From: Escherichia coli
GTDB taxonomy: Bacteria > Pseudomonadota > Gammaproteobacteria > Enterobacterales > Enterobacteriaceae
Reading direction: 5' to 3' (one strand)
Length of the DNA: 64,000 nt
NCBI RefSeq assembly: GCF_045037415.1
Contig: NZ_CP173438.1
Below are positions 1 through 48,837 of the stretch, piece after piece. The position numbers and the translations under genes are program-made. Within the stretch, counting starts at the first letter, position 1, and every line of letters starts with the position of its first letter. The notes beneath the pieces are model-generated. The model saw only the letters and a program-made list of their open reading frames with translations, was not told the DNA's origin and did not search any database.

Positions 1-827
1 GCCACAATGTTGTTAGCGCCGGTATTTTGCTGCATGGAGTTGAGGAAGCTCAGGCTAAACGTGGCGGGATCTGCGCCGTTAATTGCGCCGGTGGTAATAT
101 CCTTTGTTGGATCTGAGGTCAGAACGCCATTGGCATTAAACACCAGCGTCGTTGCAGGGTTAGCTGTGCCTGTTGGATCACTGCTATCCAGGGTGTAAAC
201 ATCCCAGTTATTATCCCCGGTCTTCACAAAGTAGACGCTCATGTCATGAGCATTACCCTGACTATCGAAAACAGTCACCGAACCTTTTTTGTTATAGCTA
301 TCCGCATTGCTGGCATCAAATGCGTTAACAGAGGGAAGCGAATCACTGGAATTCAGGTTGATCTGCATCGACGCCGTGGTGGTAGTTTTCGCTGCCATCA
401 GGGTATTCGGAATCGAAATATTGGTCGGATTCGCCCCTTGCTGAATAGTCGGCGGCGTACCGGTTGCCGGGTAACCCGTCAGCTGTAAACCTTGCATATT
501 CACCAGGTTACGGTTTTCATCCAGCTTAAATTGTCCGTTACGGCTGTAGAATACCGAACCATTGCTGTCTACCAGACGGAAAAAACCGTTCTGGCTGATA
601 GCAACGTCCAGACCACGCCCGGTGTTGGTGGTCGTGCCATCGGTAAAGTCCTGAGTGATACCAGCAACTTTTACCCCCAGTCCCACTTTCGAACCGGCAA
701 ACATATCGGCAAAAGAGGCCGTGCCTGATTTAAAGCCGTAGGTGGCGGAGTTGGCGATATTGTTGCCAATAACATCGAGGTTGGTGGCGGCAGCGTTTAA
801 TCCGCTAACCGCTTGAGAAAAGGCCAT
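1..827 (-). CDS. flgE: Flagellar hook protein FlgE, N-terminal part only; gene runs off the window start
   Basis: Minus-strand ATG at 827 reads MAFSQAVSGLNAAATNLDVIGNNIANSATY, the FlgE N-terminus; lies directly downstream of flgD in the flgBCDE operon order. Confidence 0.9.
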   Translation of the reverse strand, partial: MAFSQAVSGLNAAATNLDVIGNNIANSATYGFKSGTASFADMFAGSKVGLGVKVAGITQDFTDGTTTNTGRGLDVAISQNGFFRLVDSNGSVFYSRNGQFKLDENRNLVNMQGLQLTGYPATGTPPTIQQGANPTNISIPNTLMAAKTTTTASMQINLNSSDSLPSVNAFDASNADSYNKKGSVTVFDSQGNAHDMSVYFVKTGDNNWDVYTLDSSDPTGTANPATTLVFNANGVLTSDPTKDITTGAINGADPATFSLSFLNSMQQNTGANNIV

Positions 828-10719: not shown

Positions 10720-10792
10720 GTGCAAAGGAAAACGTTTCCGCTTATCCTTTGTGTCCGGCAAAAACATCCCTTCAGCCGGAGCATAGAGATTA

Positions 10793-19886: not shown

Positions 19887-19994
19887 GCCGGATGCGGCGT
19901 GAACGCCTTGCCAGACCCACAAAATCTTGCAAAATCAATAAATTGCAGGAACGATGTAGGCCTGATAAGCGTAGCGCATCAGGCAACTACGTTT

Positions 19995-28079: not shown

Positions 28080-28440
<361 letters not shown>

Positions 28441-28451
28441 ATTCTTCTCCC

Positions 28452-28480
28452 GAAAAAAAAACAGGGCTTACGCCCTGTTT
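28452..28480 (-). terminator. Rho-independent terminator after csgA (csgBA transcript end)
   Basis: On the minus strand: hairpin aaacagggcg-taag-ccctgttt followed by a run of about 9 T, between the csgA stop and csgC start. Confidence 0.8.
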
Positions 28481-28499
28481 CTTTCATACAGATGATGTA

Positions 28500-28958
28500 T
28501 TAGTACTGATGAGCGGTCGCGTTGTTACCAAAGCCAACCTGAGTGACGTTAACGCTGGAGTTAGATGCAGTCTGGTCAACAGCAGCACCGTTACCGCCAC
28601 CGAACTGTTTAACAGTCATAGTAGAATCTTTACCATTCCACTGATCAAGAGTAGCGCTGTTGCCGAAACCACGCTGAGTCAGATCGATTGAGCTGTCATC
28701 AGAACCTTGGCCAACATCTGCACCATTACCGCCGCCGTGCTGGGTAATGGTCAGATCAGAGTTGCGGGCGTCAGCTTGCAGAGCAAGAGCAGAGTTACCG
28801 CCACCGTACTGGTAAATATTCAGCTCTGAATTCGGGCCGCTGTTATTACCGCCACCACCGTGGTTGCCGCCACCGCCGCCGTACTGAGGAACAACACCTG
28901 CCAGAGCGCTACCGGAGAATACGATTGCTGCAATTGCTGCTACTTTTAAAAGTTTCAT
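28500..28958 (-). CDS. csgA: Major curlin subunit CsgA (152 aa here)
   Basis: Protein MKLLKVAAIAAIVFSGSALAGVVPQYGGGGGNHGGGGNNSGPNSELNIYQYGGGNSALALQ... with five imperfect amyloid repeats; ATG at 28958. Confidence 0.95.
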   Translation of the reverse strand: MKLLKVAAIAAIVFSGSALAGVVPQYGGGGGNHGGGGNNSGPNSELNIYQYGGGNSALALQADARNSDLTITQHGGGNGADVGQGSDDSSIDLTQRGFGNSATLDQWNGKDSTMTVKQFGGGNGAAVDQTASNSSVNVTQVGFGNNATAHQY

Positions 28959-28998: not shown

Positions 28999-29454
28999 TT
29001 AACGTTGTGTCACGCGAATAGCCATTTGCGACTGTCTCTGCACTACAATTGCCGTTTTTTGAGTACCATACTGTGTAATATTTGCTTTATTACCAGAACC
29101 TTTCTGGATAATCATCGCAGTATTACCATAAGCACCTTGCGAAATACTGGCATCGTTGGCACTGCCCGCCTGATCAATATATGCAAGGTTATAATCTCCT
29201 GTCTGGTCAATCTTTGCCCGGTTGCTACTACCTTCTTGCGCAACAACCGCCAAAAGTTTTGAGCCTCCCTGCCGTAACTGAGCACTATTATTAGTCCCAG
29301 CTTGACCAATTATGGCTGCCTGATTAAATGAAGACTTACTCAATTCATTTACCGCAAAGTTATATTCTGAATTAGCTAAATCATAACCTGCTGCGGCTGC
29401 AATCCCAGGCGCACCCAGTATTGTTAACATCATAAATAACAATTTGTTTTTCAT
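28999..29454 (-). CDS. csgB: Minor curlin / nucleator CsgB (151 aa)
   Basis: Protein MKNKLLFMMLTILGAPGIAAAAGYDLANSEYNFAVNELSKSS... is CsgB; ATG at 29454. Confidence 0.93.
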   Translation of the reverse strand: MKNKLLFMMLTILGAPGIAAAAGYDLANSEYNFAVNELSKSSFNQAAIIGQAGTNNSAQLRQGGSKLLAVVAQEGSSNRAKIDQTGDYNLAYIDQAGSANDASISQGAYGNTAMIIQKGSGNKANITQYGTQKTAIVVQRQSQMAIRVTQR

Positions 29455-30206
29455 GTTGTCACCCTGGACCTGGTCGTACATTTAAGAAATTAAATCATTT
29501 CAACTTGGTTGTTAACGCAACCCGTATTTTGTTAACGCTGCGTTACGATGGAAAGTATGTCTGCGGAAATATTTTTAATAACTCACCCGCGCGTTGTATT
29601 TTTCTTTTTTTGTTCATACCAAAGTATTAAAACCCACGTAAATACGCTGTTATCTACGCAAAAAATATTTTGTTTTCTTTTAAATCTCCGTTTTCCGCTA
29701 TCAAAAATCACCAGACAGTCATTCTTCTTGCCCGTCGCTGATTGCTGCGATATGTCTTGCGCACAAGCCGTGACAAACCTCGTCTTTTTGCAGTAAAAAA
29801 TTGTCCACGGTGGTATGGAGAAAAAACAAGAACGTTTTACATGACGAAAGGACTACAGCGAAATATTTTTTATATGCATTATTAGTAAGTTAGCACCATT
29901 TGTATGATTTTTTAAAATTGTGCAATAAAAACCAAATGTACAACTTTTCTATCATTTCTAAACTTAATAAAACCTTAAGATTAACATTTTAATATAACGA
30001 GTTACATTTAGTTACATGTTTAACACTTGATTTAAGATTTGTAATGGCTAGATTGAAATCAGATGTAATCCATTAGTTTTATATTTTACCCATTTAGGGC
30101 TGATTTATTACTACACACAGCAGTGCAACATCTGTCAGTACTTCTGGTGCTTCTATTTTAGAGGCAGCTGTCAGGTGTGCGAACAATAAAAAAGCGGGGT
30201 TTCATC
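29455..30206. promoter_or_regulatory. csgBAC / csgDEFG divergent intergenic control region, including the csgD promoter and long 5' UTR
   Basis: 752-bp, visibly AT-rich non-coding block between divergent csgB and csgD. Known to integrate many regulators and small RNAs; individual sites were not mapped here. Confidence 0.8.
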
Positions 30207-30857
<651 letters not shown>

Positions 30858-30861
30858 AGCC

Positions 30862-31251
30862 ATGAAACGTTATTTACGCTGGATTGTGGCGGCAGAATTT
30901 CTGTTCGCCGCAGGGAATCTTCATGCCGTTGAGGTAGAAGTCCCGGGATTGTTAACTGACCATACTGTTTCATCTATTGGCCATGATTTTTACCGAGCCT
31001 TTAGTGATAAATGGGAAAGTGACTATACGGGTAACTTAACGATTAATGAAAGGCCCAGTGCACGATGGGGAAGTTGGATCACTATAACGGTCAATCAGGA
31101 CGTTATTTTCCAGACTTTTTTATTTCCGTTGAAAAGAGACTTCGAGAAAACTGTCGTCTTTGCACTGATTCAAACTGAAGAAGCACTAAATCGTCGCCAG
31201 ATAAACCAGGCGTTATTAAGTACGGGCGATTTGGCGCATGATGAATTTTAA
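30862..31251 (+). CDS. csgE: Curli secretion specificity factor CsgE (129 aa)
   Basis: Protein [47 protein letters not shown]... is CsgE; ATG at 30862. Confidence 0.95.
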
Positions 31252-31275
31252 ATAATAAATTGTTCGGAGGCTGCA

Positions 31276-31692
31276 ATGCGTGTCAAACATGCAGTAGTTC
31301 TACTCATGCTTATTTCGCCATTAAGTTGGGCTGGATCCATGACTTTCCAGTTCCGTAATCCAAACTTTGGTGGTAACCCAAATAATGGCGCTTTTTTGTT
31401 AAATAGCGCTCAGGCACAAAACTCTTATAAAGATCCGAGCTATAACGATGACTTTGGTATTGAAACGCCATCAGCGTTAGATAACTTTACTCAGGCCATC
31501 CAGTCACAAATTTTGGGTGGGCTACTGTCGAATATTAATACCGGTAAACCGGGCCGCATGGTGACCAACGATTATATTGTTGATATTGCTAACCGCGATG
31601 GTCAATTGCAGTTGAACGTGACAGATCGTAAAACCGGACAAACCTCGACCATCCAGGTTTCGGGTTTACAAAATAACTCAACCGATTTTTAA
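31276..31692 (+). CDS. csgF: Curli assembly component CsgF (138 aa)
   Basis: Protein [48 protein letters not shown]... is CsgF; ATG at 31276. Confidence 0.95.
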
Positions 31693-31718
31693 GCCCCAGC
31701 TTCATAAGGAAAATAATC

Positions 31719-32552
31719 ATGCAGCGCTTATTTCTTTTGGTTGCCGTCATGTTACTGAGCGGATGCTTAACCGCCCCGCCTAAAGAAGCCGCCAGACCGA
31801 CATTAATGCCTCGTGCTCAGAGCTACAAAGATTTGACCCATCTGCCAGCGCCGACGGGTAAGATCTTTGTTTCGGTATACAACATTCAGGACGAAACCGG
31901 ACAATTTAAACCCTACCCGGCAAGTAACTTCTCCACTGCTGTTCCGCAAAGCGCCACGGCAATGCTGGTCACGGCACTGAAAGATTCTCGCTGGTTTATA
32001 CCGCTGGAGCGCCAGGGCTTACAAAATCTGCTTAACGAGCGCAAGATTATTCGTGCGGCACAAGAAAACGGCACAGTTGCCATTAATAACCGAATCCCGC
32101 TGCAATCTTTAACGGCGGCAAATATCATGGTTGAAGGTTCGATTATCGGTTATGAAAGCAACGTTAAATCGGGCGGTGTTGGGGCAAGATATTTTGGGAT
32201 CGGTGCAGACACGCAATACCAGCTTGATCAGATTGCCGTGAACCTGCGTGTCGTCAATGTGAGTACCGGTGAGATCCTCTCCTCGGTGAACACCAGTAAG
32301 ACGATACTTTCCTATGAAGTTCAGGCGGGGGTCTTCCGCTTTATTGACTACCAGCGCTTGCTGGAAGGGGAAGTAGGTTACACCTCGAACGAACCCGTTA
32401 TGCTGTGCCTGATGTCGGCTATCGAAACAGGCGTCATTTTCCTGATTAATGATGGTATCGACCGCGGCCTTTGGGATTTGCAAAATAAAACAGAACGGCA
32501 GAATGACATTCTGGTGAAATACCGCCATATGTCGGTTCCACCGGAATCCTGA
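31719..32552 (+). CDS. csgG: Curli outer-membrane secretion channel lipoprotein CsgG (277 aa)
   Basis: Protein MQRLFLLVAVMLLSGCLTAPPKEAARPTLMPRAQSYKDLTHLP... has a lipobox (LSGC); ATG at 31719. Confidence 0.95.
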   Translation: MQRLFLLVAVMLLSGCLTAPPKEAARPTLMPRAQSYKDLTHLPAPTGKIFVSVYNIQDETGQFKPYPASNFSTAVPQSATAMLVTALKDSRWFIPLERQGLQNLLNERKIIRAAQENGTVAINNRIPLQSLTAANIMVEGSIIGYESNVKSGGVGARYFGIGADTQYQLDQIAVNLRVVNVSTGEILSSVNTSKTILSYEVQAGVFRFIDYQRLLEGEVGYTSNEPVMLCLMSAIETGVIFLINDGIDRGLWDLQNKTERQNDILVKYRHMSVPPES

Positions 32553-35751: not shown

Positions 35752-35839
35752 GGTGAGGTGTCCGAGTGGCTGAAGGAGCACGCCTGGAAAGTGTGTATAC
35801 GGCAACGTATCGGGGGTTCGAATCCCCCCCTCACCGCCA
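35752..35839 (+). tRNA. serX: tRNA-Ser (anticodon GGA)
   Basis: GGTGAGGTGTCCGAGTGGCTGAAGGAGCACGCCTGGAAAGTGTGTATACGGCAACGTATCGGGGGTTCGAATCCCCCCCTCACCGCCA: acceptor stem pairs with the 3' end, long variable arm typical of class II Ser tRNA, GGA anticodon, encoded CCA. Confidence 0.93.
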
Positions 35840-35848
35840 TATTTAAAG

Positions 35849-35880
35849 AAGAGCTCGTACGAAAGTACGAGCTTTTTTTT
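35849..35880 (+). terminator. Rho-independent terminator of serX
   Basis: Hairpin gagctcgtac-gaaa-gtacgagc followed by 8 T. Confidence 0.85.
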
Positions 35881-35943
35881 CGTATATTGCATACACCGGG
35901 GGGATGAGAAGCCCCAGGCGGAGGTTGACAACTAGCGACAGAC

Positions 35944-37311
35944 TCATTCATCATCCTTGCGGTTGATAAGAATTTCTGCCTCTTTTACTACCACCTTATT
36001 ACGCCCGGTCTCTTTCGCCTCGTAAAGTGCGTTATCAGCCAGTTGATAGATCTCCTTAGGGTTTAACTCATTTTTCTGCGTTACAACAGCGCCAATACTA
36101 ATCGTCACTTTTTGTGGTATGGCGTATTCAGGATTATCGCCAGTTAAACGTTCAACATTTTCCCGAATCCTTTCCGCTAAAGCTTTCGCACATTCAGTAT
36201 CGATCTCCGTCAGCAAGACGCCAAACTCTTCGCCGCCAACGCGCGCTAAAAGGTCATCTGGTCGTATGCTTTTCCCAATGATATTCACCACTGTCTTTAT
36301 CACTTGATCGCCAACCGGATGTCCCCAGGTGTCGTTGACTTTTTTGAAGTGGTCAATATCCATAATCATGACGCAATAAGGTGTTTTTTTGGCCGATGCT
36401 GATTGAACCGTCAGTTCATTAAAAAAATAATTTCTGTTGAATATATTGGTTAAGGGATCGCGATGTGCAATGTCCTTTGTTACTCGTAGCGCACTGAATA
36501 TATGGCACATAAAAATTACCAAAACGGTTAACTTACTGACTACTTCAATAGTGCGACTAATATACCAAATGGACACGCTATACCTGCTCATAAATAACAG
36601 AGAGATATTGTACAGCACGGCACAAAAAGCAATCACCGACACCCCGTTCCAGATATCACAGCGTAAACCATTAAAGTATAGATTAACCGAAAGCAAGGTT
36701 AACCACATGAAAATCATTATGGTAACATATGAGGCTTTCCAAACCACCTGACCATTTTCATTGGTTAACTCGGCAATGTGTAAATCGTAGCTCTCATAAT
36801 GGCTAGAAAATATGTGAGCAACTATCGGCCCCCCAAGAACAAAAAACAAACTTATGCACAAAGTCACTTTTTTGGAAAATAAATTGCGCTGTTTTGTGTT
36901 TTCACTAACTTTATTTATCAATGCCAGAAATATTAACATGCACAAACTCATCTGACGAAACAAATAATAAATTGCAATGTCATTTTGAACAACACTGCTT
37001 GTCAAACGCCCCTCAATAATTTGCTGAATGATAATGACGGTTTTAACAAAGTAAATCAAACAACTTAGAAAAGCCAAACTAAGTATACAGTTTGAAAATT
37101 GCCTACGGTCATAAATGAAATACAACTGCATAAAAATAAATGCAACAGTATCGATAAAAAATAAAGCAATCATAACCATCAGATAGGTTGATCGTGGAAC
37201 AACTTCCTCAACGGTTGGCTGATTGAACCAACTATTAACCAAAACCAATGCAAGCCCAAACAATAAGCTCACTAATACAGTACTACTAATTCCCAAATAG
37301 TCTTTTTCCAT
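35944..37311 (-). CDS. dgcT: Membrane-anchored diguanylate cyclase DgcT (YcdT); about 455 aa from this ATG
   Basis: Protein from MEKDYLGISSTVLVSLLFGLALV... has multiple N-terminal TM helices and a C-terminal GGDEF domain (RVGGEEFGVLL); ATG at 37311. The track extension to 37434 starts on TTG right after a stop and was trimmed. Confidence 0.88.
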   Translation of the reverse strand: MEKDYLGISSTVLVSLLFGLALVLVNSWFNQPTVEEVVPRSTYLMVMIALFFIDTVAFIFMQLYFIYDRRQFSNCILSLAFLSCLIYFVKTVIIIQQIIEGRLTSSVVQNDIAIYYLFRQMSLCMLIFLALINKVSENTKQRNLFSKKVTLCISLFFVLGGPIVAHIFSSHYESYDLHIAELTNENGQVVWKASYVTIMIFMWLTLLSVNLYFNGLRCDIWNGVSVIAFCAVLYNISLLFMSRYSVSIWYISRTIEVVSKLTVLVIFMCHIFSALRVTKDIAHRDPLTNIFNRNYFFNELTVQSASAKKTPYCVMIMDIDHFKKVNDTWGHPVGDQVIKTVVNIIGKSIRPDDLLARVGGEEFGVLLTEIDTECAKALAERIRENVERLTGDNPEYAIPQKVTISIGAVVTQKNELNPKEIYQLADNALYEAKETGRNKVVVKEAEILINRKDDE

Positions 37312-44129: not shown

Positions 44130-45194
44130 TTAACTGTATGCATGTAGCGTACGTTGGCAAAGTGCCGAACGTACGCAATCCTCTTTACCGAATCGGACGA
44201 TCCCGACCATTTCATCCTCTTCGAAACGTTCCAGCGCGTCACTTAATCCGGAGCGCACGCCGCGAGGCAAATCGCATTGCGTGATATCACCGTTGACGAT
44301 AACCGTCACGTTCTCCCCGAGGCGGGTTAAAAACATTTTCATTTGCGCGGCAGTCACATTCTGCGCCTCGTCAAGAATGACGACTGCATTTTCAAAGGTA
44401 CGTCCACGCATATAGGCGAACGGCGCAATTTCCACCTTCCCTATTTCCGGTCGCAGGCAGTACTGCATAAAGGAAGCCCCTAAGCGACGGACCAGCACGT
44501 CGTAGACCGGGCGAAAATAGGGAGCAAACTTTTCTGCGATATCACCAGGTAAGAAACCAAGATCTTCATCGGCTTGCAGAACTGGACGGGTGACGATAAT
44601 CCTGTCAACATCCTTATGTATCAGGGCCTCTGCCGCTTTTGCTGCGCTGATCCAGGTTTTTCCGCACCCGGCTTCACCCGTGGCAAATATCAGCTGCTTA
44701 CTCTCAATAGCCTTCAGATAGTGCAATTGCGCTTCATTTCGCGCGAGGATGGGCGAGGTATCGCGACTGTCGCGGGCCATACCAATGGCTTCTACGCCGC
44801 TCATTTGCACAAGCGAGGTGACCGATTCTTCTTCACGCTGCTTATGGCTGCGCGAATCCCGTCTCAGCACACGTTTTGCCTCGCGACGAGCTTTGATCAC
44901 TGCTTTTTGTCTTCCCATGGAGAGCACCTTGAGTTGTTTGTATTCATCACACGCGCCGTTGGCAGCGCGATTATGCGCACGAACATCAGAGGGTTGGCTT
45001 CCTTGTAAGCCATAGTTTGCTTTTGGATAAAATGCCGAAAAACGGCTACGCGCACCGTTTACGGCGTCGGTAACACATGAAAAGAAAGGATGAGGTTGAA
45101 AATACAAAGTGACGAGATGACTACCGGAGGAGAAATCTCCGCGAGTGGTGGCGCGCTGATTCTCTAAAACATGTCCAGTACAGGACGTTACCAT
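44130..45194 (-). CDS. phoH: PhoH, phosphate starvation-inducible ATPase (354 aa)
   Basis: Protein MVTSCTGHVLENQRATTRGDFSSGSHLVTLYF... with Walker A GEAGCGKT; ATG at 45194. Confidence 0.93.
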   Translation of the reverse strand: MVTSCTGHVLENQRATTRGDFSSGSHLVTLYFQPHPFFSCVTDAVNGARSRFSAFYPKANYGLQGSQPSDVRAHNRAANGACDEYKQLKVLSMGRQKAVIKARREAKRVLRRDSRSHKQREEESVTSLVQMSGVEAIGMARDSRDTSPILARNEAQLHYLKAIESKQLIFATGEAGCGKTWISAAKAAEALIHKDVDRIIVTRPVLQADEDLGFLPGDIAEKFAPYFRPVYDVLVRRLGASFMQYCLRPEIGKVEIAPFAYMRGRTFENAVVILDEAQNVTAAQMKMFLTRLGENVTVIVNGDITQCDLPRGVRSGLSDALERFEEDEMVGIVRFGKEDCVRSALCQRTLHAYS

Positions 45195-45343
45195 CCGCGA
45201 TCTCCATAGTGACTGACTATCACTGCCGGGAACTTCCGCTGCTACTTAATAAGTACAACAGATTTCGCATTCATTGCAACAATATATTCACTTATATTTA
45301 ACCATAAAACACCATTTCAGTGACATTAGTTTCTACTGGAAAG

Positions 45344-45362
45344 ATGACAGAGTGATGACAGT
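45344..45362 (-). promoter_or_regulatory. Pho box (PhoB binding site) upstream of phoH
   Basis: Minus strand reads CTGTCATCACTCTGTCATC: two CTGTCAT direct repeats 11 bp apart, matching the Pho box consensus, about 150 bp upstream of the phoH ATG. Confidence 0.7.
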
Positions 45363-45410
45363 GATGAAAAAAGCTGTGTGCTTTCAGCAGGATTCGCGGT
45401 ACTGGTAAAA

Positions 45411-45540
45411 GCTTGCCGGATGCGGCGTGAACGCCTTATCCGGCCTACCGACCCGCACCGATTGTAGGCATGATAAGACGCGCAAGCGTCGCATCAGCGC
45501 ACGAACGCCTGGTGCGGCGTAAACGCCTTATACGCCTAAA
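45411..45540. repeat. Cluster of REP (repetitive extragenic palindromic) units
   Basis: gcttgccggatgcggcgtgaacgccttatccggcctac, gtaggcatgataagacgcgcaagcgtcgcatcagcgc and cgcctggtgcggcgtaaacgccttatacgcc between phoH and efeB. Confidence 0.8.
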
Positions 45541-45544
45541 AACA

Positions 45545-46816
45545 TTAAACCCGCAATAATGCGCTTCCGAGATAATCGTTCGCGTCCTTCACACCCGGCA
45601 GCGCAAAGAAATAGCCGCCACCGATAGGTTTGACATATTCCTCCAGCGCCTCGCCATTCAACCTTTTTTGTACTGTCAGGAAGCCCTTTTCCAGATCGTG
45701 TTGGTAGCAGACAAACAGTAGCCCCATATCGAGTTGCCCGGAATTGGTGACGCCCAACGAATAACTGTAGCCACGACGCAGCATCAGGCTGGACTCGCTC
45801 TCCGCCGTGCGGGGATTCGCCAGCCGGATATGGCTGTCCAGCGCAATCACCTTCCCTTCCGGATCGCTAGCGTAATCGGGAACATCATGCTCATGCTGCA
45901 TGCCCAGCGGCGCACCGGTTTGCTTATCACGACCAAATATCGTCTGCTGCTCTTTCAGCGGCGTTCTGTCCCAAAATTCCACTCGAAACTGAATCAAGCG
46001 TACTGCCTGATAGCTGCCACCGATTGTCCACGCAGGCTCCTGCTGATCTGCCGTCACCCACACCACTTTTTGCATCAACTTCGCATTCTGGCTATCGGGA
46101 TTGGCGGTGCCGTCTTTAAAGCCCAGCAAATTTATCGGCGTCTCTTTGCCTTTACTACGCGCTGCGTGGTCGGAAATAAACCCTTCCCGCTTCCAGCGCA
46201 CGCTGAGCAAATCCGGCGTGTGTTTGATGATATCGCGCAGCGCATGGATCACCGTGTCCTGGGTGTTGGCGCAAATTTGTAGCAACACATCACCATGACA
46301 TAACGCCGCATCCAGCGAGTCGTTGGGGAAACGCGTCATCTTCTGCAACTTTTTTGGCATCTGTGGCGCAAGGCCAAAGCGCTCATCAAACAATGAGTGA
46401 CCCACCGATAACGTGATGGTGAGATTATCGGGCGCAATGTAGCCGCCAAGAATGCCGGAATCGAGTGGTGGCAGGCGCGGATTTGGCGTTTCTGGTGCCG
46501 CTCCGCCCTGAGTCAGAAAAGCAAAACGCTGAGTCAACAAGCGAAACAACCGTTCAAGATCGGCTTTATCGCTGGCAAGCACATCAAACGCCACCAGCAT
46601 CATTGCAGCCTGTTGTGGTGTCAGGATCCCTGCCTGATGCTCACCATAAAACGGCTGTTTCTCATTGCGTGCATCCGGTGAAAGCGTACCCGGCGCACTT
46701 TGCGTTTTTTGTGCATGAGCAACCGGACAACTTCCCGCCAGCGCCAGCGCACCAATCCCTTTCAGTAAACGTCGGCGTGACGGTTCATTCACGCCGTTTT
46801 CATCTTCATACTGCAT
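45545..46816 (-). CDS. efeB: Tat-exported Dyp-type haem peroxidase EfeB (YcdB), 423 aa
   Basis: Protein [36 protein letters not shown]... has a twin-arginine signal (SRRRLLKG); ATG at 46816. Confidence 0.95.
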
Positions 46817-46821
46817 AACGC

Positions 46822-47949
46822 TTAGTCCAGCCCCAGCACACCACGAAGTTGCGCCAGATCTTCCGCCAGCGCAGTAATCGGTCCTTTCAGTGCGTTCCGG
46901 TCGGCATCGGTCAGTTTGTCGTAATTTTCAAAACCCTCTTTAGTGCGGTATTTCGCCAGAATGGTATCGACCTTTTTGAAGTTGGCATCGACTTTTGCCA
47001 ACAGTTCCGGATTCGCTTTTTGTAGTTGTGGACGCAGCAGATCGACAATTTTCTGCGAGCCTTCAACGTTAGCCTGGAAATCCCACAGATCGGTGTGGCT
47101 GTAGCGATCTTCTTCACCGCTGATTTTGCTGGCCGCCACTTCCTCAATCAGTCCGGCTGCACCGCCGACCACTTTTGAAGGAGGGAAAGCCAGTTCACTG
47201 ATGCGTTTTTGCAAATCGACCACATCGGTATAAAGCTGGTCAGCATACTTATCCATCCCTTTGGTGGTGTTATCGCCAAACAATGCTTTTTCCAGACGGT
47301 GGAAACCGGTGAATTTTGGATCGGCGGCTTTTTGCTCGTAATCATCTTCACGGGCGTCAATGCTGCCATCCAGATCGGAGAACAGTTCAGCAATCGGTTC
47401 GATGCGCTCATAGTGCTGCCGCGTCGGCGCATACAGTGCTTTCGCTTTTTCGATATCGCCTGCTTTAATAGCGTCGGTAAAGGCTTTGGTGTCGGTCACC
47501 AGTTGCGTGGTTTCCGCCATGACATACGCTTTATATGCAGTAATTGCACCACCAAGACTTAACAGCGCATCACTTTGCGCCGCATCCGCCGTTGCTTCAC
47601 CTTTGACGATCAACTTCCCTTTCGGGTTAGTCAGCAGACCGCAGGTCATATCGTATTCGCCAGGCTGTAAATTCGCCGTCATTTTCTGGCTAAAACCAGG
47701 GGCGATATTTTCCCGCTCTTCCACCACCATCACGCCTTTGAGGATCTCCCACTCCAGCGCCTTCTGGCTGTGGTTCTGAATAATGAACTGTGTTTTCCCG
47801 GCGTTAACCGTAATGGTCATCGGCTCGCACTGCTTATCTGTCACAGTGACTTTGACTTGCGGAATATCGGCGGCGTTAGCCATAAAAGCAGAAGAGAACA
47901 GCGCAGCCACGCTCAACTGCAATGCGTTACGACGGAAGTTAATGGTCAT
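46822..47949 (-). CDS. efeO: Periplasmic iron-uptake component EfeO (YcdO), 375 aa
   Basis: Protein [44 protein letters not shown]... is EfeO; ATG at 47949. Confidence 0.95.
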
Positions 47950-48006
47950 GACGAGACTATCCCTTTAAAGTATGTTGTAACTAAGCAAGAGTTTGCGTCG
48001 TATTTG

Positions 48007-48837
48007 CTACACGGAGCGGGACGCAGTCGCCCCTGCGCGTGGTGGCAGAACAAATGCCACCAGCGCCGGGATGAGATAAATAAACCAGACGGCGACTTCG
48101 CTGACGCTCGGTGCTTCCTGATAGCCAAAAATCCCTTCCATCAGTGTGCCAAACAGCGAGTGAGTTGAGAGCACCGCGCTCATATCGAAGGCGATTTCCT
48201 GAAAGTGGTTCCACAATCCGGCTTCATGAAATGCGCGAATGGCACCAGCTGCCAGCCCTGCGGCGACGAAGAGAATAAACAGACTGGTCCATTTAAAAAA
48301 TGCACCAAGATTGAGGCGAATACCGCCCCAGTAGAGCAGGAAGCCAAGCACCACGGCTGTAGCAAGACCGAGCATTGCACCCAGCGGCGGCCAGACCCCG
48401 ACATCTTGTTGAAATGCCGCCAGCAGGAAAAAGACCGACTCCAGCCCTTCCCTTGCAACGGCAAAAAAGACCATCATCACCAGCGCCCAGCCATGATGAT
48501 TTCCACGCTGCAATGCGCTATCGACCGCCTGCTCCAGTTGTACTTTGACGTTGCGCGACACTTTGCGCATCCAGAAAACCATCCAGGTAAGGATCACCAC
48601 GGCGATCACCGCCACAATGCCTTCAAACAGTTCCTGTTCTTTTTGCGGAAATTCGCCGGTGGTTTCGTTAATGAAGATACCCAAGCCCAGGCACAACGCA
48701 GCGGCAAGCAACACGCCAATCCACATTACACCAATCCATCGGCCTCGCTGGGTACGCTTAAGATAGCTGGCAATCAAACTGACAATCAGCGCGGCTTCAA
48801 GTCCTTCGCGCAACATAATGAGAAACGGAACAAACAT
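48007..48837 (-). CDS. efeU: Ferrous iron permease EfeU (Ftr1 family), 276 aa, intact reading frame
   Basis: Protein MFVPFLIMLREGLEAALIVSLIASYLKRTQRGRWIGVMW... with REGLE motifs; uninterrupted frame from ATG at 48837 to the stop at 48007. Confidence 0.92.
   Translation of the reverse strand: MFVPFLIMLREGLEAALIVSLIASYLKRTQRGRWIGVMWIGVLLAAALCLGLGIFINETTGEFPQKEQELFEGIVAVIAVVILTWMVFWMRKVSRNVKVQLEQAVDSALQRGNHHGWALVMMVFFAVAREGLESVFFLLAAFQQDVGVWPPLGAMLGLATAVVLGFLLYWGGIRLNLGAFFKWTSLFILFVAAGLAAGAIRAFHEAGLWNHFQEIAFDMSAVLSTHSLFGTLMEGIFGYQEAPSVSEVAVWFIYLIPALVAFVLPPRAGATASRSV

Follow-up and report, generated by a model that had tools for sequence, protein, structure and literature searches.

Is the first glycine tract of the CsgA protein encoded in this stretch of Escherichia coli DNA really one residue longer than that of K-12 and, if so, what kind of difference is it? 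In the window, by which we mean the whole 64,000-base stretch that was analysed, the list of open reading frames contains only one entry that fits the original prediction, namely csgA, encoding the curli major subunit (28500..28958, minus strand; ATG start, 459 nt including the stop codon, 152 amino acids). We find that the tract is longer by one glycine, that the 152-residue protein is an ordinary variant which has already been catalogued, and that the difference is very probably a natural in-frame length polymorphism of a (GGY)n repeat, with the extra glycine falling in the disordered N22 linker of an old allele that would have arisen by slippage and is most likely neutral or nearly so. The original observation is correct but matters little; the allele is common and annotated.

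The csgA gene and its additional glycine codon

The gene is identified as csgA by family profile, motif, repeats and locus context. Its product scores 238 bits against the CsgA equivalog profile NCBIfam NF007470 (cut-off 160), with residues 1–152 covering profile positions 1–150 of 150, and matches Pfam PF07012 (Curlin_rpt) at 97.4 bits in three stretches. It also matches the CsgA fibril chains of PDB entries 8enq and 8enr as well as the N22 peptide of entry 6l7c (chain S). The csgB-csgA-csgC genes lie beside the divergent csgDEFG genes, and each of the seven genes encodes a full-length protein: csgB, for the curli minor subunit or nucleator, occupies 28999..29454 (minus strand), csgC, for the periplasmic curli chaperone, 28108..28440 (minus strand), and the intact csgDEFG operon, for the regulator CsgD, CsgE, CsgF and the secretion channel CsgG, 30207..32552 (plus strand). 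The window CsgA is predicted to be secreted in a CsgG-dependent manner and to form Congo-red-binding fibres. A frameshift or pseudogene reading of the gene was considered and rejected, and an Rfam scan found no RNA families within csgA.

The protein starts with MKLLKVAAIAAIVFSGSALAGVVPQYGGGGGNHGGGGNNSGPN, and its N-terminal segment reads ...AGVVPQYGGGGGNHGGGGNNSGPN. A Sec signal peptide (MKLLKVAAIAAIVFSGSALA) is encoded by codons 1–20 (28899..28958, minus strand); cleavage takes place after codon 20, as is established for CsgA, and the mature CsgA chains in the PDB begin at G21. Codons 21–26 (28881..28898, minus strand) encode GVVPQY, the N-terminal hexapeptide that binds CsgG, which is contained in the peptide chain of 6l7c. 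Residues 1–26, comprising the signal peptide and GVVPQY, are the same in the window and in K-12. The first glycine run then follows (28866..28880, minus strand), and after it the second, of four codons (GGT GGT GGC GGT; 28848..28859, minus strand), which does not vary across nine aligned alleles. Together with the hexapeptide these runs fall within the N22 targeting segment, a degenerate and disordered curlin half-repeat that has 23 residues in the window allele (28830..28898, minus strand). The remainder, codons 44–152 (28503..28829, minus strand), forms the amyloid core of repeats R1–R5.

The csgA gene of K-12 MG1655 (b1042, NP_415560.1; NC_000913 1104447-1104902) is 456 nt long and encodes 151 residues, which is the length given for it in the original prediction. 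In alignments of both DNA and protein, the window and K-12 alleles are separated by a single gap of 3 nt, or one residue, and this gap lies in the first glycine run. The run comprises five codons in the window (GGC GGC GGT GGC GGC, a reading backed by the alignments and by exact-probe counts, and written on the plus strand as gccgccaccgccgcc) as opposed to four in K-12 (GGC GGC GGC GGT), such that the suspected difference of one glycine is confirmed. The two alleles otherwise share their locus, signal peptide, hexapeptide, second glycine run, five repeats and C-terminus. The further expectation that the repeats would be unremarkable holds roughly, and at the protein level only. R1–R5 is 98% identical in protein sequence and differs by three substitutions (T61A, N110D and E112T from K-12 to the window, in K-12 numbering), but the DNA of the two genes is just 91.7% identical: they differ at a further 35 or so nucleotides, almost always synonymously and only within csgA nt 117-420, giving the core a nucleotide divergence of 9-11%.

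The same allele is found in other genomes. The entire window is identical (100%, without gaps) to positions 1129792-1193791 of JJ1886 (NC_022648.1), an ST131 reference strain, and a 20-kb query from the window finds many E. coli genomes at 100% identity. In the RefSeq annotation of JJ1886 the gene is P423_RS05775, csgA, of 459 nt, and its product is the 152-residue 'curli major subunit CsgA' WP_000771429.1; this protein, which is also that of strain SCAID URN1-2021 (URN1), shows no difference from the window's. At the DNA level URN1 and Nissle-type csgA spell the tract differently, as GGC GGC GGC GGT GGC. The CsgA of E. coli O157:H7 (WP_000771428.1, 152 residues) likewise has five glycines and the same overall architecture, but its tract is spelled GGC GGC GGT GGC GGT, it has H for T at window residue 113 and T for S at residue 135, and its gene belongs to a third core class at about 10% DNA divergence from both of the others. 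Some sequencing technologies are error-prone in short GC-rich repeats, a general point that is not specific to this allele, and one might ask whether the extra GGY unit was miscalled during sequencing or assembly. We give this next to no credence, because the exact 71-nt stretch occurs in 639 independent complete genomes and the finished JJ1886 genome is identical over all 64 kb; moreover, about 1,366 genomes carry a five-glycine tract, the frame remains open, and the allele has a RefSeq protein accession of its own.

The K-12 protein of 151 residues is consequently not the sole wild-type form of CsgA. Roughly one in four sequenced E. coli has a CsgA of 152 residues, among them O157:H7, Nissle 1917 and the genomes identical to JJ1886. 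Since these strains have an extra glycine, their residue numbering shifts by one after Y26, and length-based quality filters, as well as structural or engineering work built on K-12 CsgA, should allow for the 152-residue form.

Tract lengths, spellings and their origin

Tract states were counted with probes of 65–74 nt over csgA nt 46–116, a stretch that is invariant in nine aligned alleles except for the tract itself. An exact match corresponds to the identity band of at least 99%, the denominator is the set of complete E. coli genomes with a match to the probe, approximately 5,352, and each exact count may be off by one due to a partial-length, high-identity match to the truncated csgA of one strain. 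Four glycines are found in approximately 3,970 of the 5,352 genomes (~74%), with 3,929 having the K-12 spelling. Five glycines are found in approximately 1,366 (25.5%), in four spellings: that of the window (639 genomes), that of the O157:H7 allele (397, mainly O157:H7), the Nissle-type spelling (298, including Nissle 1917) and GGC GGC GGC GGC GGT (6). The count for the window-spelling probe, for which there are 728 five-glycine genomes at one to three mismatches beyond the 639 exact matches, was cross-checked with the K-12-spelling probe. Three glycines (GGC GGC GGT, for example in strain VR50) occur in about 16 genomes (~0.3%). Among the ~5,352 genomes there was no full-length exact match to a probe with the five-glycine spelling GGC GGC GGC GGT GGT, nor to one with (GGC)5GGT, which was the sole six-glycine spelling tried.

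The truncated csgA is that of strain P21_SE1_04.20 (NZ_CP085074.1, approximately 3010450-3010496), where it is annotated only as 'curlin' and is matched by the probes over their first 44-47 nt. It is apparently the single extra record in the band of at least 99% identity that appears in several of the probe searches. Our literature searches found no description of the tract polymorphism, and only general CsgA protein variants were reported (PMC8767327).

The alleles differ by whole repeat units, with three, four and five glycines all being observed. The idea of a simple slippage polymorphism, as originally put forward, draws support from this series of GGY units and from the spelling GGC GGC GGC GGC GGT, which results directly from the K-12 tract when one unit is duplicated, is present in six genomes and sits on two unrelated csgA backbones (four genomes with K-12-type and two with O157-type cores). 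The three-glycine tract is the matching deletion. With this duplication product among the five-glycine spellings, a triplet-repeat slippage polymorphism is well supported. We would envisage an imperfect (GGY)n repeat that gains and loses whole units, most plausibly via replication slippage, with the allelic series of three, four and five glycines in E. coli arising from such changes.

A single slippage step in the K-12 tract does not yield the window spelling itself, for which two synonymous substitutions are required in addition, or else acquisition by recombination. The duplication spelling differs from the O157 spelling by one C>T change, and the O157 spelling from that of the window by one T>C change, such that every intermediate is observed on a path from the four-glycine tract through these two forms to the window. 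The window form could accordingly have been produced by duplication of one GGC in a four-glycine tract followed by two synonymous substitutions; it would then have become fixed in the window lineage, which is that of JJ1886, and recombination would have moved it onto other csgA backbones. The extra codon in the window is an old, lineage-fixed allele as opposed to a recent slip. The sequence difference, its frequencies in the population, the spellings and the intact csg context are direct observations, from which we infer slippage as the mutational mechanism, this order of events and the neutrality of the change.

The tract state is decoupled from the rest of csgA, because the same spellings are found on different cores and because B2-type cores occur with four glycines (E2348/69, HR12-1) as well as five. 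This would point to recurrent slippage, to recombination, or to both, and the sharing of spellings across core classes is a pattern that recombination could equally yield. It might then be asked whether slippage was involved at all, or whether short-patch recombination or gene conversion, either between diverged csgA alleles or with the second glycine run, both made and spread the five-glycine spellings. The three common spellings are indeed not one-step duplications of the four-glycine tract, the window spelling is found on its own B2-type core and on the unrelated K-12-type cores of GPEC657 and L028, some csgA alleles are visibly mosaic (HR12-1, GPEC657), and the end of the O157 spelling (GGT GGC GGT AA) is the same as the end of the second run. 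Recombination, however, moves length variants without generating a length change of 3 nt, an exchange between the two runs would shift the length by approximately 18-21 nt, and both the pure duplication product and the three-glycine allele exist, as slippage predicts. We therefore consider an origin without slippage unlikely, and favour slippage as the source of the length change.

As for the direction of change, distant outgroup genera favour four glycines or fewer as the older state: the tract of Citrobacter sp. R56 is GGC GGC GGC GGT, as in K-12, while those of Lelliottia and Pseudenterobacter have three glycines. The CsgA of Salmonella, with four, would point the same way. A scan of genome contigs with the degenerate pattern ALAGVVPQYGG, which the window sequence itself fits, found four loci (two in Citrobacter and one each in Pseudenterobacter and Lelliottia) and none in Escherichia or Shigella. 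A search for sister species using the invariant CsgB protein led to ten places, all of them in E. coli with csgB at most 0.4% from K-12, and these carry the same csgA allele classes as had already been found. Tract state is strongly lineage-structured, which fits drift and selection alike.

We also considered a phase-variable contingency locus, and rejected it. The tract consists of 4-5 imperfect units, the change is in frame, and the spelling holds steady throughout a large clone, with 586 genomes sharing at least 99% identity across 20 kb and 639 genomes having the exact tract.

Likely consequences for the N22 linker

The extra glycine is placed directly after GVVPQY and before R1, and it lengthens N22 from 22 to 23 residues. 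Residues V2-G7 of N22 lie in a crevice of CsgG, and the hexapeptide GVVPQY (N6) alone suffices for binding (PMC6957492). N22 is a degenerate half-repeat which is disordered, protease-accessible and outside the amyloid core, and its glycine repeats could not be assigned by NMR (PMC10192328, PMC11005368, PMC7217966). When N22 is removed, the conformational ensemble of CsgA changes, and so does the way in which CsgE recognises the protein (PMC7217966).

In the CsgA proteins of Citrobacter, Lelliottia and Pseudenterobacter, the hexapeptide, a GPN motif and the R1-R5 core are conserved as in the window, but the glycine-rich stretch between GVVPQY and GPN varies in both length and composition (for example GGGGNGGWPGHGDN, GGGNHGGGNGGGSNNS and GGGHGGGWGGNNS). 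Variability of this kind across genera shows low constraint on the linker. No compensating change is seen in the partner proteins: CsgE and CsgB are those of K-12, CsgG carries A258T and CsgF carries T21S. Among the strains compared, the CsgE accession is identical in those with four and with five glycines, and one CsgG accession is common to four of the six strains and to both tract lengths, with the CsgG of the window and JJ1886 and that of K-12 differing from it. The extra glycine is probably neutral or nearly so, because it lies outside both the hexapeptide and R1-R5 and because the other curli components are intact. Given the influence of N22 on the CsgA ensemble (PMC7217966), linker length may nevertheless have a subtle effect.

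An adaptive role would go further than this. The length of the linker after GVVPQY might tune the hand-over of CsgA to CsgG and CsgE, or an intramolecular chaperoning function of N22, and five glycines might have been selected in the JJ1886 lineage, O157:H7, Nissle 1917 and the like. It would be in keeping with such a role that N22 binds CsgG and influences both the CsgA ensemble and CsgE recognition, that several successful lineages carry the five-glycine form at high frequency, and that the prevalence of CsgA variants differs between haemolytic and non-haemolytic E. coli (PMC8767327). According to that same study, however, sequence variation in CsgA has yet to be linked to a functional effect, and the hexapeptide binds CsgG by itself. 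Furthermore, the length and content of the glycine-rich stretch vary freely from one genus to another, neither CsgE nor CsgG co-varies with tract length in the strains compared, and B2-type cores carry either four glycines (E2348/69) or five. Selection on linker length thus strikes us as improbable, and near-neutrality remains the reading that we prefer.

Diverged core classes and other features of the window

Compared across six strains, the part of csgA that encodes the amyloid core can be sorted into three classes: a B2-type core (the window, E2348/69 and URN1), a K-12-type core (K-12 and GPEC657) and an O157-type core (O157:H7). Nissle 1917, which was compared by its tract spelling, shares that of URN1. 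The classes are 8-11% apart in nucleotide sequence, with dS of 0.32-0.56 and dN of 0.01-0.024, compared to a dS of 0-0.03 for csgB and 0-0.026 for csgC in the same strains, in which csgA nt 1-116 is also almost invariant. The diverged region corresponds to window positions 28503-28842 (minus strand), which are csgA nt 117-456. Third-codon-position differences between the E. coli classes amount to 20-28%, roughly half as many as in comparisons with other genera (35-50%). One serine codon, AGC in the B2-type core and TCC in the K-12-type, has ACC (Thr) as its O157-type counterpart, such that the O157 form is the intermediate step.

Long-term balancing selection around residues 110-112 might account for such a pattern, as might introgression from a different species of Escherichia. 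Three core classes (dS 0.3-0.56) lying between near-invariant csgB and csgC would matter more if either process were at work at an amyloid gene. That tract length (three, four or five glycines) and the three core classes together mark functionally distinct curli types, kept by selection or introgression and not by drift, seems to us very improbable; were it true, the curli types might differ in secretion hand-over, in cross-seeding, or in recognition by hosts or phages. Our literature searches found no paper describing the synonymous divergence of csgA; recombination has been reported at csgG (PMC11853335).

Measured in 300-nt windows over the 64 kb, the mean divergence from K-12 is 2.4% (SD 1.8), and only two peaks exceed the 11.0% of the csgA core, which ranks third: one in a portion of flgE (17.7%) and one in the spacer between efeB and phoH (13%). 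The highest values, up to 17.7%, are at window positions 1-450, inside the gene for the flagellar hook protein FlgE according to the JJ1886 annotation. The second peak, of 11-13%, is at 45250-45800 and takes in the efeB-phoH spacer as well as the beginning of phoH, a gene which is annotated with 789 nt in JJ1886 and 1,065 nt in K-12.

Several smaller features were noted in the csg locus. Between csgA and csgC there is a terminator-like hairpin with an A-run and a U-run (28454..28485, minus strand; RNA folding energy of -24 kcal/mol, z = -6.1). It directly follows the csgA stop codon, and compared to K-12 its T-run has one additional base; a consensus terminator scan did not flag it, although folding shows it clearly. 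Relative to K-12, the window CsgD (30207-30857) has P for S19 and A for S110. The CsgD of JJ1886 (WP_000481500.1) is common by accession to O157:H7, E2348/69 and GPEC657, such that it is the K-12 CsgD that is the unusual allele. In the leader just upstream of csgD, at 30061-30152 (plus strand), there is an Rfam match to the ES056 sRNA (119.7 bits).

Elsewhere in the window, at 35821-35987, there are 45 bases where K-12 has approximately 3.26 kb between dgcT and a tRNA-Ser gene, the K-12 segment containing IS3D, the ymdE pseudogene, ycdU and a repeated unit. A unit of 121 nt (35821-35941) has three additional matches in K-12 about 181 nt apart, with identities of 92.6-97.5% and one of them only 80 nt long. 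The efeU gene (approximately 47900-48750) is intact in the JJ1886 annotation and a pseudogene in K-12, for which the efeU defect is known. Further Rfam matches in the window are to Ysr251 (44135-44328), the PyrC leader (10743-10792), a tRNA (35752-35836) and ES036 (19921-19963).
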